NCBI GenBank assembly: GCA_043822065.1
Contig: JBDRCC010000015.1
Location: 1 to 12,176 of the forward strand
Reading direction: 5' to 3'
DNA from: an archaeon
GTDB lineage: Archaea; Undinarchaeota; CAZHTU01; JBDRCC01
DNA: 12,176 nucleotides
Shown here: positions 2,012 through 12,131 of the stretch, one piece after another
Layout of the letters: the number at the start of each line of letters is the position of its first letter
Position numbering within the stretch: position 1 is the first letter of the stretch
Notes under the pieces: generated by a model
What the model saw: the letters and a program-made list of their open reading frames with translations, nothing else
Databases searched by the model: none
What the model was told of the DNA's origin: nothing
Made by a program: the position numbers and the translations under genes

Positions 2012-2779
2012 ATGCCGGCAGGATATGTTGTAGTACTAGCTTTCGTAATCGCGCTTCTGGCGGTTGCGTTCAAGATAAAGGACTATCTAGTAGAGTTCAA
2101 GGAGTACGAAAGGGCGGTGGTCTTCCGCTTCGGCAGGTTCAACCGGGTAGCCGGCCCGGGATGGGTCCTCATCCTGCCAGTCATCGAGAAGTACACCAAA
2201 TACGACCTCAGGACGCACACAGTCGACGTCCCGCCCCAGATGGTAATCACCAAGGACGGCATCGAGCTGAGGATTGACGCAGTTGTTTATATCCGTGTCA
2301 TAGACCCGAAGAAGGCGGAATTGTTCGTTGAGGAGGACTACAGGTTTGCGGTCGAGGAGTTCATCAAGGGCAAGATAAGGAACATAATAGGCAGGATGGA
2401 GCTGAGCGACGTCTACGGCAGGATAACCGACCTGAACGAAATTCTCTGCGAGTCCGCAAGGAACATCTCCCAAAACTGGGGTGTCGAAATCGAGGACGTG
2501 GAGCTCCAGGGGGTTCAGCCGCCGGCTGACGTCGTCGACGCCCTGAAGGCGCAAGAGATTGCCGAGAGGCAGAAGCTCGCGGCGATAGAGCGGGCTGAGG
2601 CGCTCAAGATAAAGATTGACGCAATACAGAAGTCTGCGGGGCAGCTGAATGACAAGGCGCTCGCATACCTTTACATGCAGAGCCTTGAGAAGATTGCCGC
2701 TGGGCCTGCGAACAAGATAATATTCCCGCTTGAGTTCACAAAGCTCGCCGAGAGGCTGGTGTCTGGGAAAAAGGATTAA
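2012..2779 (+). CDS. SPFH/band-7 domain protein (stomatin/prohibitin family)
   Basis: There is an N-terminal TM helix (GYVVVLAFVIALLAVAF). After it comes the characteristic SPFH core: EYERAVVFRFGR...GPGWVLILPVIE...DLRTHTVDVPPQMVITKDGIELRIDAVVYIRVIDP. A C-terminal coiled-coil-like region is rich in AEALKIKIDAIQK. The six-frame track begins at TTG 1994. I prefer ATG 2012 because of the TATA box at -26 and the hydrophobic N-terminus that follows directly. Confidence 0.9.
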   Translation: MPAGYVVVLAFVIALLAVAFKIKDYLVEFKEYERAVVFRFGRFNRVAGPGWVLILPVIEKYTKYDLRTHTVDVPPQMVITKDGIELRIDAVVYIRVIDPKKAELFVEEDYRFAVEEFIKGKIRNIIGRMELSDVYGRITDLNEILCESARNISQNWGVEIEDVELQGVQPPADVVDALKAQEIAERQKLAAIERAEALKIKIDAIQKSAGQLNDKALAYLYMQSLEKIAAGPANKIIFPLEFTKLAERLVSGKKD

Positions 2780-2780
2780 G

Positions 2781-3815
2781 ATGGTATTTGAGAGCGTGCT
2801 TAGCCCTGAAACGGCGGAGAACAAGCCATATGACGCATTCATCCTGAGCTTCCTGCTTTCTACAATATCGATAATGCTGGCGTTCATCGTCTTCACCCCG
2901 TACATTGTGGTGAACACGGTGCTTTCAGCCTACACTATTTTTTTCATCGGGATCGTGCTGTTCATCGTCGAGGGGAAGCGGTCCTTTTCAAAGACGCTTT
3001 TCACGCTCACCCTGCTGGCGGTAGTCACGATAATATTCATAACAAACATACAGGGCAAGATACTCGCCCTCGACTATTCAGCATACGCGACATCGGTCTC
3101 GCTTTCGATGATATTCTTCACCTCGCTCGGGCTTGCGCCGCTCATGGTGAGGCTGCTCCAGGTAGAGGAGCGCAGGGACATTGAAGATCTTGAGGATACT
3201 TTCCTTGAGAGGCATTACCACGTGCTCCTGGCTTACGCCGCGCTGTTTGTTGGCGCAGTTTTCGCGTATTCGCTCTGGTTCACGATACTGCCGGAGTCGC
3301 TTGTGGAGACGATATTCAGCGAGCAGCTGAGCACGATAAGGTGGGTGTCCGGGCTGAGGATGGGCCTTACGGCGCAGGTAATCGGCGGGCAGAGCTTTGG
3401 GCTGATACTTAACAACAACCTGAAGATACTCGCAGTCTCGGCGCTGATGTCGTTTGCGCTTGGCTCGGGTGCGATATTCATACTCACCTGGAACGCGTCA
3501 GTGATAGCCGTCGCGATAGGCGACACCGCAAGGACCTTCATCTCGTATTATGCAGGGATGGGGCACTTCGCAGGGGTGGCCGCTTACTTCCATGCCCTCC
3601 CGATTTCGCTTTCGAGGCTGCTTTTCCACGGGAGCATAGAGATACTAGCCTACTTCATTGGAGGGCTCGCGGGCGGAATTCTGTCGGTGGCGGCGATCGC
3701 CCACGAGGGCGCAGCGATATGGCTTGTGATAAAGGATGCGACAAAGCTGCTTGCCTTTTCGGTTTTCCTGATAGTGGTTGCCGCAGCCATTGAGGCGGCG
3801 ATGATAGGGGTATGA
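2781..3815 (+). CDS. Polytopic membrane protein, DUF95/SpoIIM-like family (tentative)
   Basis: There are about 8 predicted TM segments. The motif LILNNNLKILAVSALMSFALGSGAIFILTWNASVIAVAIGD resembles the conserved NxLK...(about 23 aa)...NG/WN signature of stage II sporulation protein M / DUF95 proteins. I recalled this from memory and did not search it. The ATG at 2781 lies 2 nt after the SPFH stop, with AAGGA 5 nt upstream. The upstream in-frame extension from 2730 overlaps the SPFH gene, so I rejected it. Confidence 0.5.
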   Translation: MVFESVLSPETAENKPYDAFILSFLLSTISIMLAFIVFTPYIVVNTVLSAYTIFFIGIVLFIVEGKRSFSKTLFTLTLLAVVTIIFITNIQGKILALDYSAYATSVSLSMIFFTSLGLAPLMVRLLQVEERRDIEDLEDTFLERHYHVLLAYAALFVGAVFAYSLWFTILPESLVETIFSEQLSTIRWVSGLRMGLTAQVIGGQSFGLILNNNLKILAVSALMSFALGSGAIFILTWNASVIAVAIGDTARTFISYYAGMGHFAGVAAYFHALPISLSRLLFHGSIEILAYFIGGLAGGILSVAAIAHEGAAIWLVIKDATKLLAFSVFLIVVAAAIEAAMIGV

Positions 3816-6467: not shown

Positions 6468-9143
6468 ATGGCAGACGACAAAGAAAACCCAACGATTGAG
6501 CTGAGGGTAGCCAAGGCAATGCCCGAGGATGCGGAGCGGGGCATAGTCAGGATAGACTCAAAGGCGACGAAGATGGTAGGCGTCGCGGTGGGGGACATAG
6601 TCGAGATAATCGGTGGAAGGACAACGGCCGCGATAGTCGAAAGGGCTTACCCAAGCGATGTTGGCCTTGGCGTCATAAGGATGGACGGGCTCATAAGGAA
6701 GAACGCGGAGACGGGCATAGGGGAAAGTGTCAAGGTCAAGAAAGCGGAAATCTTTGAAGCGAAAAAGGTGGTAATCGCACCGACACAGGAGCTCGGCGGG
6801 CAGCTAGTCGTCCAGGGGATTGAGCGGCTGCTTATCGGACGGCCTTTTGTCAAAGGGGACATACTCGCACCCATACAGAGGCGCGGCGGGGGCATAGACA
6901 TAAACAGCCTCTTCAGCGAGTCGTTCGGGCTGCCCATATTCGGCGGCGGAATTGGCGGAATAAAATTCGTAGTTGCAAGCACCCAGCCGAAGGGCGTGGT
7001 AATAGTCACTGACGTGACTGAGATTGAGGTCAGCCAGCAGGCTGCGGTTATAAAAGATGAGAAGCTCCCTGACGTAACTTACGAGGACATTGGCGGGCTG
7101 AGGGATGAGATAAAGAAAGTCCGCGAGATGATAGAGATACCACTCAAGCACCCAGAGGTATTCGAGAGGCTCGGCGTCGAGCCGCCGAAAGGCGTGCTTT
7201 TGTACGGCCCGCCTGGAACAGGAAAGACGCTTCTTGCGAAGGCGGTTGCAAACGAGACTAATGCCAACTTTATCCTCATAAATGGCCCGGAAATAATGTC
7301 GAAGTTCTACGGCGAGTCGGAGAAGCAGATAAGGGACATATTCGACAATGCGCAGAAGAATGCGCCGAGCATAATATTCATCGATGAGCTGGACTCAATC
7401 GCCCCGAAGAGGGAGGAGGTAACCGGTGAGGTCGAGAGGCGGGTTGTCGCCCAGCTGCTTTCCCTGATGGACGGCCTCCAAGCGAGGGGGCGGGTAATAG
7501 TCATAGGCGCGACGAACAGGCCGGAGGCGCTCGACGTTGCACTCAGGAGACCGGGGAGGTTTGACAGGGAGATAGAGATTGGCGTGCCAGACCGCGACGA
7601 CAGGAAAGAGGTTCTCCAGATACACACGAGGAGGATGCCGCTTGGTTGGGAACAAATCAAGACGTATGTAGCGCCATATCTATTAGAACTGCAAAAAATT
7701 TCGAGAATCGATGATAATACAATACATATCAGCGCTAAGATTGGCATTGACACAGATGGGTCTATGAAAATGCCAGGGGGAGATCTATTCTTTTATGCTA
7801 AAGATTTGAACGAAAAGTATTCTGCCATTGATAAGTATTCTACAACGGTTCCTAAGGAGGGTATATTAGAAGTGGGTAAATCAAAAAAACTCCCCCACGA
7901 GGACTATATTCGATTTAAAAATTCCCAGTTCACAGATGGAGAAACGTATGCAATCGACTATTGGATTAAAGCTAAACGCGGGGCGTCTATTATATTTGGT
8001 TGGGGCACTACATCTAGCTCGACCACGATAAGTATCGGTAATGAGATTGACCTCGACGCCCTTGCGGACATAACCTATGGGTATGTTGGTGCAGATCTGG
8101 CAGCGCTCACGAAAGAAGCCGCGATGGCGACGCTGAGACGGGTTATGGAGAAGGGCGAGTTCAAGCTCGACGAGAAGGGGGGAGCGATACCGCCGGAGAC
8201 CCTGAAGAAGCTAATAGTCGAAAAGAAGGACTTTGACGAAGGAAGGCGGCTTGTCGAGCCGTCAGCCATGAGGGAGGTCCTGTTCAGGAAGCCAACCACT
8301 ACCTGGGATGACATCGGTGGATTGGAAGAGGTCAAGGCCCAGCTCAAGGAGACTGTGGAATGGCCACTCGAGGATCCGGAGTCGTTCAAGAGGCTCGGGA
8401 TAAAGCCGCCGAAGGGCGTCCTGCTGTTCGGGCCGCCGGGGACGGGAAAGACGCTCCTTGCGAAGGCTGTCGCGAACGAAAGCGACGCAAACTTCATTTC
8501 AGTGAAAGGGCCTGAGCTCATCTCAAAGTGGGTAGGCGAGTCCGAGAAGCACGTCAGGCAGATATTCAAGAAGGCGCGGCAGGTTGCGCCCACGATAATA
8601 TTCTTCGACGAGCTGGACTCAATCGCCCCGAAGCGCGGCTCGGAGATTGGGGTTAAGGTCGGAGAGAGGATAGTCGACCAGCTGCTGACAGAGATGGACG
8701 GCATGGAGGAGCTTGAGGGAGTCATAGTCATAGGCGCGACAAACCGCCCGGACATAATAGACCCTGGGCTGCTGAGGCCGGGACGGTTTGACAGGCACAT
8801 ACTGACGCCAGTCCCGGACAAAGCTGGAAGGCTCAAGATATTTGAGGTGCACACCAAGAACATGCCGCTCGACAAGTCAGTCGGCCTGAAAAAGCTCGCG
8901 GATATGACTGACGGGTACGTCGGCGCTGACATTGAGGCGCTGTGCCGCGAGGCTGCGATGAACGCGTTAAGGATTGACAAGAAGGCAAACAAGGTCGACA
9001 TGAACGACTTTGAGGTCGCATTCACCCATGTCAACCCGACGATGACAGAGGGGATGAAGCACAATTATGAGGGCATACTTAAGGACTTCACGACCCGGGC
9101 AAGCATCAAACTAGATAAGGATGTAACCAGGTACTTAGGATAA
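6468..9143 (+). CDS. cdc48: CDC48/VCP/VAT-type double-ring AAA+ ATPase carrying an atypical ~132-aa in-frame insertion in the D1 lid subdomain
   Basis: The N-domain resembles Thermoplasma VAT ([22 protein letters not shown]). D1 has Walker [14 protein letters not shown], Walker B IIFIDELD and second region of homology (SRH) [26 protein letters not shown]2 has a second [21 protein letters not shown] and [21 protein letters not shown]. Between D1 ...IHTRRMPLG and [19 protein letters not shown] there are about 132 extra residues that the equivalent D2 segment ([28 protein letters not shown]) lacks. Confidence 0.9.
7647..8042 (+). other. In-frame, compositionally foreign (AT-rich) insertion within cdc48 D1 (approximately [14 protein letters not shown]...[15 protein letters not shown])
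   Basis: GC drops abruptly. A hand count gives about 32% over 7651-7700 against about 57% over 7611-7650. Codon choice shifts to AT3 codons (aaa, gat, tat, att, tct). There are no in-frame stops. No intein blocks are present: no N-terminal Cys/Ser, no terminal HN. The insert ends in a Ser/Thr-rich linker. The 9-mer ttggttggg occurs at the left junction (7642-7650) and again at 7996-8004. Confidence 0.7.
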
Positions 9144-9164
9144 TTCTTTTGGTCGAGCTTTCCG

Positions 9165-9184
9165 CGAAAAGCTTAAGCTTTTCG
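9165..9184. repeat. 20-nt perfect palindrome cgaaaagcttaagcttttcg (tandem AAGCTT hexamers) 21 nt downstream of the cdc48 stop; possible terminator hairpin or protein-binding dyad
   Basis: I verified by hand that the sequence equals its reverse complement. As a hairpin it would give an 8-bp stem with a ttaa loop, followed by a T4 run. Confidence 0.5.
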
Positions 9185-9190
9185 GAGCCC

Positions 9191-9209
9191 CAAAGAACAA
9201 GGTTCTTTG
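9191..9209 (+). terminator. Second small hairpin (caaagaac-aag-gttctttg), then T-rich tract, in the cdc48 3' region
   Basis: An 8-bp stem and 3-nt loop is followed by cggtctttcg. Together with the palindrome it may form a tandem termination region for cdc48. Confidence 0.25.
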
Positions 9210-9231
9210 CGGTCTTTCGAAGAAAAGGTCG

Positions 9232-9272
9232 CTGGACAAGGACGTAACTAGATACCTCGGCTGATTCTTAGA
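9232..9272 (+). repeat. Second copy of the cdc48 3' end (codons [10 protein letters not shown] + stop + ttctt), synonymously recoded relative to the in-frame copy at 9108-9148
   Basis: 9108-9148 reads ctagataaggatgtaaccaggtacttaggataattctt. 9232-9272 reads ctggacaaggacgtaactagatacctcggctgattctt. Both translate to [10 protein letters not shown]. All 9-10 nucleotide differences are synonymous, including stop taa versus tga. The 5 nt after the stop are identical. The second copy is in the +1 frame relative to cdc48 and has no in-frame start codon upstream. Confidence 0.6.
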
Positions 9273-9552
9273 AGAAATACACCATCAGGACGTAGAGCGC
9301 CAGCATTGCCGCGAGCACAATAGACATCGAGGTGACGGCGCGCATTATCGGCTCAACACCCTCAGGTGATGCAAGGATTAGGAGCATAAGGGAAAGAGTG
9401 ATGCCAAGCGCTATTCCGGAGACAAACTCCTGCGAAAGCTGGAGGATGCCCTCGCCGGTGTTGAAGTTGAACTGGAAGTATGCGACACTGACGGCAACCG
9501 CTATCAGGACTACTATGATTGCGCCGGTCTTTGCGTTTAGCTCGATTAGCAT
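9268..9552 (-). CDS. Small hypothetical membrane protein (94 aa, about 3 TM helices)
   Basis: A strong Shine-Dalgarno-like GGAGGT lies 9 nt upstream of the ATG on the - strand. The protein has hydrophobic stretches (GAIIVVLIAVAVSVAYF; IALGITLSLMLLILA; SIVLAAMLALYVLMVYFF). It ends 1 nt before the recoded cdc48-tail copy. Confidence 0.5.
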   Translation of the reverse strand: MLIELNAKTGAIIVVLIAVAVSVAYFQFNFNTGEGILQLSQEFVSGIALGITLSLMLLILASPEGVEPIMRAVTSMSIVLAAMLALYVLMVYFF

Positions 9553-9576
9553 ATCCTGCCTACCTCCGGTTTTTGC

Positions 9577-9603
9577 ATCAGCTTTTTTTGAAAAAGCTGA
9601 TTT
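9577..9603 (-). terminator. Hairpin (11-bp A/T-rich stem atcagcttttt / aaaaagctgat, 3-nt loop) between the map stop and the downstream small membrane gene; candidate terminator or attenuator
   Basis: A perfect inverted repeat lies 16 nt after the map stop (9617) and 27 nt before the next ATG (9552). Oligo-T runs sit within and next to the stem. Archaeal termination relies on T-tracts. Confidence 0.35.
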
Positions 9604-9616
9604 GCGTTTACCTCAA

Positions 9617-12105: not shown

Positions 12106-12131
12106 AAAGAAGGGGGCGAACCCCCTTCTTT
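12106..12131 (-). terminator. GC-rich hairpin (aagaaggggg-cgaa-cccccttctt) followed on the - strand by a T7 tract; likely intrinsic-style terminator for a - strand gene lying beyond the window end
   Basis: A perfect 10-11-bp stem with a 4-nt loop. A7 at 12094-12100 on the + strand gives T7 immediately 3' of the hairpin for - strand transcripts. It sits just upstream of the promoter of gene 11420-12040. Confidence 0.5.

Follow-up and report, generated by a model that had tools for sequence, protein, structure and literature searches.

Two silently diverged copies of the cdc48 3' end in an Undinarchaeota contig, and the probable displacement of a native gene tail

The 3' end of cdc48, the gene encoding a CDC48-family AAA ATPase, is present twice in direct orientation on contig JBDRCC010000015.1 (NCBI GenBank assembly GCA_043822065.1), a metagenome-assembled contig from an uncultured archaeon of the Undinarchaeota that was analyzed over its whole length of 12,176 bp (the window). 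The two copies encode the same ten-residue peptide followed by a stop codon, and they differ from each other at silent positions only. The copy that is fused to the gene (copy 1) is composed of A/T-rich codons that are rare in this genome, whereas the downstream, untranslated copy (copy 2) is composed of host-like codons and abuts the conserved downstream neighbor of cdc48. We favor the reading, with a probability of about 0.58, that copy 2 is the displaced native tail of the gene, and that copy 1 together with the spacer that follows it (positions 9111 to 9231) is a patch imported from a relative of lower G+C content (GC). This conclusion rests on synteny with one relative, the presence of a single tail at six related loci, and a contrast in the usage of ten codons.

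Structure and silent divergence of the two tails

The features concerned are the following, with positions numbered from the start of the contig.

6468 to 9143, plus strand: cdc48, encoding a CDC48-family AAA ATPase of 891 amino acids (from the list of open reading frames (ORFs) and its translation)
9111 to 9148, plus strand: copy 1, the gene-fused tail (10 codons, TAA and TTCTT), in the cdc48 frame and with AT-rich, non-host codons; probably imported
9149 to 9231, plus strand: spacer of 83 nt, GC 0.48, unrelated to cdc48; putative 3' flank of the donor
9232 to 9269, plus strand: copy 2, the untranslated tail duplicate (10 codons, TGA and TTCTT), in the +1 frame and with host-like codons; probably the displaced native end
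9111 to 9231, plus strand: candidate imported patch of 121 nt (copy 1 and spacer), GC 0.44 compared to 0.54 for the contig
9165 to 9184, no strand assigned: perfect 20-nt palindrome CGAAAAGCTT/AAGCTTTTCG within the spacer
9188 to 9212, no strand assigned: second hairpin of the spacer, with 11-nt arms that are 91% complementary and a 3-nt loop
9268 to 9552, minus strand: convergent gene for a membrane protein of 94 amino acids, 57% identical to the corresponding ORF of the related locus L001

The Cdc48 protein of the contig is 100% identical to the NCBI protein entry 'MAG: CDC48 family AAA ATPase [archaeon]', and no other contig encoding it was found by exact look-up; its nearest relative is an Undinarchaeota Cdc48 with 83% identity. 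Copy 1 reads CTA GAT AAG GAT GTA ACC AGG TAC TTA GGA TAA followed by TTCTT, and copy 2 reads CTG GAC AAG GAC GTA ACT AGA TAC CTC GGC TGA followed by TTCTT, such that both specify the same ten residues (...DKDVTRYLG) and then a stop. An earlier note on this DNA, made from its sequence alone, had described units of 41 nt offset by 124 nt; the direct repeat in fact comprises 38 nt (33 coding and 5 beyond the stop), of which 29 are identical, with 121 nt from start to start and a gap of 83 nt. The same note's observation that all differences between the copies are synonymous was borne out. The nine mismatches, at positions 9113, 9116, 9122, 9128, 9131, 9135, 9137, 9140, and 9142, involve seven third positions of codons, one first position of a Leu codon (TTA/CTC), and the second base of the stop codon (TAA/TGA), and all nine are silent. 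An all-silent outcome for nine random substitutions was not obtained once in 300,000 simulations, and an analytic estimate gave a probability of approximately 2e-6; a chance origin of the pattern is excluded. A degenerate pattern for DVTRYLG and a stop matched the contig exactly twice and was not matched in any of 200 shuffled sequences.

The limits of the repeat are sharp. Ungapped identity drops at once outside the 38 nt, as judged from the 60 nt preceding each copy, and the longest exact runs common to the two copies, ATTCTT (6 nt) and AAGGA and GTAAC (5 nt each), are too short to be called a crossover core, though such a core, if old, may have diverged. Over the coding part the copies have diverged by approximately 27%, and three of the ten sense codons are identical, compared to a fraction of 0.41 along the whole of cdc48 between the contig and L001. 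This similarity of levels indicates that the divergence is old, as would be expected for tails that belonged to different lineages, and unlike that of a recent local duplication.

Copy 2 lies in a +1 frame that is open from 9139, immediately after a TAG at 9136-9138, to the TGA at 9262-9264, and this frame contains no ATG, GTG, or TTG before that TGA, in agreement with the earlier note. A second of the three plus-strand frames is likewise open across the spacer, and so the openness of the +1 frame carries no weight. The 41-residue product of the copy-2 frame gave no match in an exhaustive HMMER search of 1.84 billion representatives and none in Pfam, and the notion that copy 2 is the end of a recognizable protein was thus discarded. 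No ORF with a start codon was found within the 83 nt between the copies.

Divergence at silent sites alone is consistent with constraint on the protein. A C-terminus of the form ...[RK]Y[LIMF]G was found to be conserved across the DPANN Cdc48 proteins recovered, with the Tyr third from the end (from the list of homologues P0001-P0060), and the longer ...DKDVTRYLG is specific to the small clade of this genome. The C-terminal tails of archaeal Cdc48 proteins are required for activation of the 20S proteasome, and the HbYX motif consists of a hydrophobic residue, a penultimate Tyr or Phe, and any terminal residue (PMC3493965). With its Tyr third from the end, the R-Y-L-G of the contig is not a canonical HbYX sequence; the Methanomicrobia and Thermococci-type Cdc48 proteins in the same list end with G-I-Y-G, a canonical HbYX with penultimate Tyr. 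Given the conservation of ...YLG coupled with the need for the tail in proteasome activation, the tails of both lineages would have been under strong constraint at the level of the protein, and orthologous tails evolving apart under such constraint would come to differ at silent sites only.

The spacer itself begins with a T-rich stretch (TTCTTTTGG, read from 9144). T-rich flanks also follow the cdc48 stop codon in relatives, and that of copy 1 resembles them, which fits a contiguous piece of donor DNA composed of a gene end and its terminator. The scan for promoters and terminators returned nothing in the spacer, and no further copies of the spacer were found in the contig or at the related cdc48 loci. 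Its translation, taken as the 31 codons before copy 2, had no similarity to the C-terminal regions of nine Cdc48 proteins (shuffle p of 0.21-0.95), and a homology of copy 2 running further upstream, suggested by eye from KKRS against KTRS and from AF.E, was rejected by these same tests (p of 0.21-0.95). The spacer as a structured RNA was also rejected: at the gathering threshold, Rfam gave no match in 9100-9280 (two sub-threshold matches both lie outside), and the fold z-score was unremarkable at about -1.8 on both strands.

Two simple origins of the repeat were likewise set aside. A tandem duplication by slippage or unequal crossover would have left a 121-nt period that is homologous throughout, but the 83 nt preceding each copy are unrelated both in DNA and in protein. 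A transposable element or miniature inverted-repeat transposable element (MITE) flanked by a target-site duplication was rejected given the lack of extra copies in the contig and the related loci, and of terminal inverted repeats at the spacer ends; moreover, repeats that were born identical and then drifted would not differ at silent sites only.

Codon usage and synteny

The structure alone cannot name which of the two copies is the newcomer, and codon usage was therefore used to assign polarity. Synonymous codon tables were prepared for the genes of the contig, with the tail and a low-GC insert in the D1 domain of cdc48 (described below) excluded, and for the genes of L001 (GC 0.45; GC at third codon positions (GC3) of cdc48, 0.40), and log-likelihood ratios of contig versus L001 usage were calculated for windows of 10 codons. 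With a ratio of -6.0, copy 1 falls within the lowest 0.2% of host windows, a value that is unremarkable for genes of the L001 type. Copy 2, with a ratio of +0.5, is located at the 19th percentile of host windows, and the ten codons that directly precede copy 1 are strongly host-like (+5.4). Among the codons of copy 1 are TTA, which accounts for 2% of host Leu codons, CTA (6%), and GAT (18%), the latter used twice. In each of the other eleven genes, between five and nine of the final 11 codons end with G or C, and AT-rich gene ends are thus no habit of this genome. Codon usage was also profiled along cdc48, as the earlier note had proposed; the most negative suffix of the gene was found to start at codons 878-882, which coincides with the left edge of the repeat.

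All of the genes on both sides of the junction have a GC3 of 0.61-0.77, and only two segments of the contig deviate, copy 1 (4/11, 0.36) and the D1 insert (0.37). Both are within cdc48, which lends support to the earlier suspicion that this locus is a mosaic. The insert is as follows.

7638 to 8048, plus strand: AT-rich, in-frame D1 insert in cdc48 of approximately 131-137 codons, GC 0.39, GC3 0.37 compared to about 0.7 for the rest of the gene

It follows the residues ...IHTRRMPL of the D1 domain and is lacking in the closest relatives; unrelated inserts of varied length occupy exactly the same site in many other DPANN Cdc48 proteins. The insert has no match in Pfam, and no homologues were returned by a word-indexed search, which did not return the protein itself either. 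A single-sequence AlphaFold model of it was beta-rich but, with a predicted local distance difference test (pLDDT) score of 52, too poor to use.

For comparison with relatives, cdc48 loci were collected from five proteins that share the ...DKDVTRYLG tail and from one further locus identified by a pattern scan (L009), giving the set L001, L002, L004, L009, L011, and L012; two more, L003 and L005, encode the same proteins as L002 and L004. Each of these six Undinarchaeota loci has one tail where the contig has two, and no second tail-like peptide was found in any frame within 600 nt downstream of cdc48 at the related loci. The gene order of L001, namely a small ORF, cdc48, a convergent ORF of 94 amino acids, an M24 peptidase gene, and a glycosyltransferase gene, is syntenic with that of the contig. 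The 94-residue proteins of the two are of equal length and colinear to the last residue, and in the contig the stop codon of this gene (9268-9270) overlaps the final 2 nt of the TTCTT of copy 2. From the cdc48 stop to that of the 94-residue protein gene there are 21 nt in L001, whereas in the contig the distance is 3 nt from the stop of copy 2 and 124 nt from that of copy 1, making this interval approximately 100 nt longer in the contig than in L001 (124 compared to 21 nt). The positions of the two stops indicate that the contig holds one extra period of 121 nt. Hence the single tail of the relatives is, in L001, placed as copy 2 is; copy 1 is contiguous with the body of the gene, and copy 2 with its native downstream neighbor.

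Proposed displacement and competing explanations

On the favored reading, copy 2 (9232-9264 and the TTCTT that follows) would be the original end of cdc48, left stranded and untranslated beside its old downstream neighbor. The segment 9111-9231 would have entered by copying or recombination, its source being the cdc48 locus in a related archaeon of lower GC or an element carrying such a fragment, and it would have contributed the donor's last ten codons and stop codon together with 83 nt of the T-rich 3' flank and its hairpins. Homology at approximately codon 882 would have guided the left junction, such that the reading frame and the protein were kept, while the right junction would be an illegitimate or site-specific join to native sequence at the same codon. 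With the right-hand join at that codon, the native tail would have been displaced and not deleted. Both junctions of the patch do map to a single native coordinate, the boundary between Lys881 and Leu882, and the ancestral allele would have read ...ATCAAA joined directly to CTGGACAAG....

Two routes to such a structure may be envisaged. It may have arisen by site-specific integration, with the crossover at the upstream edge of the duplicated segment. Alternatively, a break may have occurred near codon 882, with the left end then priming on a diverged cdc48 template, copying its tail and 83 nt of flank, and finally being end-joined. By either route, the two tails would have diverged silently as the working ends of genes in separate lineages and been brought together only later, with the relic too young to have decayed. 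Of the 99 possible single changes in a copy, 23 are silent, and so approximately three quarters of new substitutions in a drifting relic would alter the peptide. The lack of any such change in copy 2 suggests that it has been non-coding only briefly, and the unameliorated composition of both copy 1 and the D1 insert points likewise to a recent event.

This is one of the explanations offered in the earlier note, which had proposed that the downstream copy is the ancestral gene end and that a lower-GC donor brought its own version of the tail. It is favored here, if indirectly, by the synteny, by the position of copy 1 in the extreme 0.2% of host codon usage, and by the change-point at codons 878-882. 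Neither outcome that the earlier note named as fatal to its finding was seen, given that the relatives have one copy and that copy 2 is not the end of a recognizable gene. A number of observations weigh against it, beginning with the donor, which was not found; neither were a copy of the spacer elsewhere or a strain that lacks the patch. The spacer was without match in the related loci, viral contigs, plasmids, and phages. A degenerate pattern of the tail gave one chance match in a collection of genome contigs and three matches in a collection of metagenome contigs, with L009 alone among these a genuine cdc48 tail; almost no Undinarchaeota were recovered from either collection. The same pattern gave no match in viral contigs. 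With the viral contigs, the 20-nt palindrome was matched exactly once (L010), between unrelated flanks and by chance, two other strings from the spacer were not matched, and a degenerate pattern of the tail plus flank gave 15 chance matches. BLAST searches of plasmids and phages with 9100-9280 returned nothing meaningful. In the databases searched there is no genome closer than that with 83% protein identity; a search with the last 130 residues of Cdc48 returned only fragments, with at most 67% identity.

Other adverse points concern the junctions and the polarity. No integrase or other mobile-element gene was identified on the contig when its ten main ORFs were compared with Pfam (the glycosyltransferase ORF being assigned by synteny only), and an identical crossover core of more than 6 nt is absent. 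The five identical bases that follow both stops (TTCTT) require either a coincidence between T-rich sequences or a role for microhomology, and the junctions themselves are known from the assembled contig alone. Polarity was judged from ten codons, and copy 2, at the 19th percentile, is compatible with the host rather than diagnostic of it. Finally, the GGA TAA that ends copy 1 also ends cdc48 in L001, L002, and L004, which gives copy 1 the look of a plain ortholog, as if it were native.

It is conceivable, if unlikely, that a small Undinarchaeota element with its own recoded tail attaches or recombines repeatedly at the 3' end of cdc48, in which case the hairpin-bearing spacer of 83 nt would be a remnant or minimal form of that element. 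A hint that displacements recur is provided by L011 (ENA ERZ24794666 NODE_633588; 1,819 nt, approximately 3x coverage), where positions 1-814 include a 5'-truncated 3' fragment of cdc48 of some 195 in-frame codons, running from AVRKIFKRARQVAP... to the tail and stop. The convergent M24 peptidase gene, which is its normal neighbor, is 79 nt away. Upstream of the fragment are an AT-rich stretch and then an unrelated divergent gene that starts (MAVEYSVETCNQLAQRF...) but does not finish within the L011 contig. The fragment may be a cdc48 3' end displaced on a larger scale.

The opposite polarity, in which copy 1 is native and the spacer with copy 2 (9149-9269) was imported and inserted at a TTCTT microhomology after the stop, has only a small chance of being correct. 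The TTCTT at both ends would serve naturally as microhomology for the junction, no stop interrupts the copy-2 frame within the spacer, the GGA TAA of copy 1 recurs in three relatives, and copy 1 is the nearer of the two to the tail of L001 (29 of 33 nt identical, compared to 24 of 33 for copy 2). Similarity to L001 was not significant as a test of polarity, given that six of the ten codons of copy 1 are identical to those of L001 against a mean of 4.1, and 21% of windows do as well. An imported gene end would be predicted to bring with it the conserved ...PTM..YE.IL.DF... upstream of the tail, but this is not encoded in the spacer, where GC3 in the relevant frame is 0.45. It is also the codons of copy 1 that lie in the 0.2% tail of the host while those of copy 2 fit it, and insertion past a stop codon gives no reason for an exact match of ten codons.

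Less probable again is an origin within the lineage and without foreign DNA, either from a tandem cdc48 paralog of which all but the last ten codons was deleted, or from an old local duplication with both tails maintained. Paralogs under selection would also diverge at silent sites only, and the synonymous divergence of the copies is as large as that between the contig and L001. Nevertheless, tandem cdc48 genes were found in no relative, the deletion of a paralog would require two events and a long wait, and the 83 nt before each copy, not being homologous, exclude a simple tandem duplication. Nor would such an origin account for the retained tail alone having non-host codons with a change-point at the edge of the repeat.

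We regard as improbable an artefact of assembly, by which the contig would join the gene ends of two co-occurring strains. The sequence is a whole metagenome-assembled contig, its Cdc48 protein is on record from that contig only, two compositionally odd patches occur within one gene, and the structure is known from the assembly alone. Against this, the copies share no exact stretch of more than 6 nt, and hence no k-mer to loop an assembler between them, the frame and stop are intact, and real reads must contain the join between spacer and copy 2, such that a truncated tail beside the 94-residue protein gene would be real in any case.

A very improbable alternative is that a +1 shift at GGA-UAA-U, or recoding of some other form, leads translation on into copy 2 and yields a minor isoform of Cdc48 that is longer by 41 residues (NSFGRAF...). 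Such an isoform would end with the same docking tail, and both copies would then be selected in place. No stop interrupts the frame between 9139 and the TGA at 9262, the stop of copy 1 comes after rare codons (TTA GGA) and before hairpins, and docking would be expected only of a product that has the same tail at its C-terminus (PMC3493965). But another frame is open too, GC3 of the spacer in the +1 frame is 0.45 compared to 0.70 for the host (p = 0.003), and the 41-residue product had no protein or family match in the searches above. The extension is present in no relative, no recognized shift site was seen, and the foreign codons of copy 1 would remain unexplained. Deliberate recoding in an engineered construct, also raised in the earlier note, has a negligible probability: synonymous recoding and two adjacent HindIII sites in the spacer (AAGCTTAAGCTT) superficially resemble cloning, but the AAGCTT pair is the center of the 20-nt palindrome, the fragment comes from an uncultured DPANN archaeon and was assembled out of an environmental metagenome, and no similar vector, plasmid, or phage record was found.

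Relation to known systems and the surrounding locus

The closest precedent for a displaced native tail is the isocitrate dehydrogenase gene (icd) of E. coli, where prophage e14 supplies a substitute 3' end and the native fragment, icdC, stays at the far end of the prophage (PMC13626634, citing Hill et al., 1989). The two versions of the icd 3' end differ mostly by synonymous changes (PMC13626634). As with e14 (and phage 21), the 3' end of cdc48 is present twice in direct orientation, with a gene-fused copy that would derive from incoming DNA and a native copy that would lie untranslated on the far side, and the differences are mainly synonymous with preservation of the protein. Here too, there are two diverged direct copies of a 3' end with the same protein sequence, of which the gene-fused one is foreign in composition (-6.0) and the displaced one (+0.5) is 3 nt from a conserved convergent gene. 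The two cases differ in that the copies are separated by 83 nt here and by a prophage of approximately 15 kb in E. coli, that no integrase was found between the copies or among the ORFs scanned, and that there is no identical core of more than 6 nt. The duplicated segment is also shorter (10 codons compared to about 50), and the host is a DPANN archaeon.

A further parallel is with naturally transformable bacteria, for which homology-facilitated illegitimate recombination, or aborted synthesis-dependent repair from a diverged template, has been described. There, homology positions one end of the foreign segment and an illegitimate join the other, which leaves a short patch and, at the junction, resident sequence that is duplicated or deleted; the process is not known to have been documented in DPANN archaea. 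The patch in cdc48 is similar in that it lacks element genes and both of its junctions fall at the same native coordinate. It is dissimilar in that a coding divergence of approximately 27% is high for a homology anchor, and that the donor was not found.

Among archaea, integrative elements and casposons insert at gene 3' ends, those of tRNA genes or of the aEF-2 gene, and restore the target gene from sequence that is either borne by the element or duplicated, with direct repeats as the result. In those cases the repeats (att cores or target-site duplications) have identical or almost identical nucleotide sequences with kilobases of element between them; the two described here have 76% identity and are separated by 83 nt. 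With programmed +1 frameshifting at stop codons, as known from prfB and antizyme, the present arrangement has in common a stop followed by an open +1 frame and downstream secondary structure; it differs in that a known shift-prone context is lacking, the relatives show no conservation, and the extension bears no signature of coding. On the favored reading, the structure would be a scar of recombination of a kind already known, here in an unusual host, and no new mechanism or class of element is proposed.

If the favored reading is true, the locus preserves, within an essential gene, the clean and datable trace of an exchange of DNA by diverged DPANN archaea, in which incoming DNA replaced the C-terminal tail and left the protein unchanged, with the original tail still readable alongside. 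It would follow that a non-coding duplicate need not be under selection itself to differ from its counterpart at silent sites only and, together with the low-GC D1 insert, that cdc48 of this lineage is a recombination mosaic. The patch would then serve as an instructive case, and as a marker by which the donor lineage or element might be traced.

Further features were noted in the neighborhood of cdc48. At L004, a TnpB-like gene (OrfB_IS605 / Cas12f1-like TNB domains; 2280-3536, minus strand) is located between pheT and the small ORF upstream of cdc48, and mobile-element activity thus occurs at this locus within the clade. On the downstream side, 64 nt (9553-9616) separate the start of the 94-residue protein gene from the stop of the M24 peptidase gene in the contig, compared to 1 nt in L001, and this interval contains a perfect 11-bp hairpin at 9577-9601 (ATCAGCTTTTT-TTG-AAAAAGCTGAT). 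The spacers on both sides of the 94-residue protein gene are therefore enlarged in the contig, and both have hairpins with an AAAAGCT/AGCTTTT motif. The ORFs of the M24 peptidase and the glycosyltransferase, as called, overlap by 62 nt in both the contig (10467-10528) and L001 (4115-4176), and by 41 nt in L002 and L004, which looks like either a conserved overlap or a shared mis-called start. Another perfect 11-bp hairpin, with a loop of 4 nt, is found at 12106-12131 (AAAGAAGGGGG ... CCCCCTTCTTT), at the low-GC end of the contig and beyond the start of its last gene.

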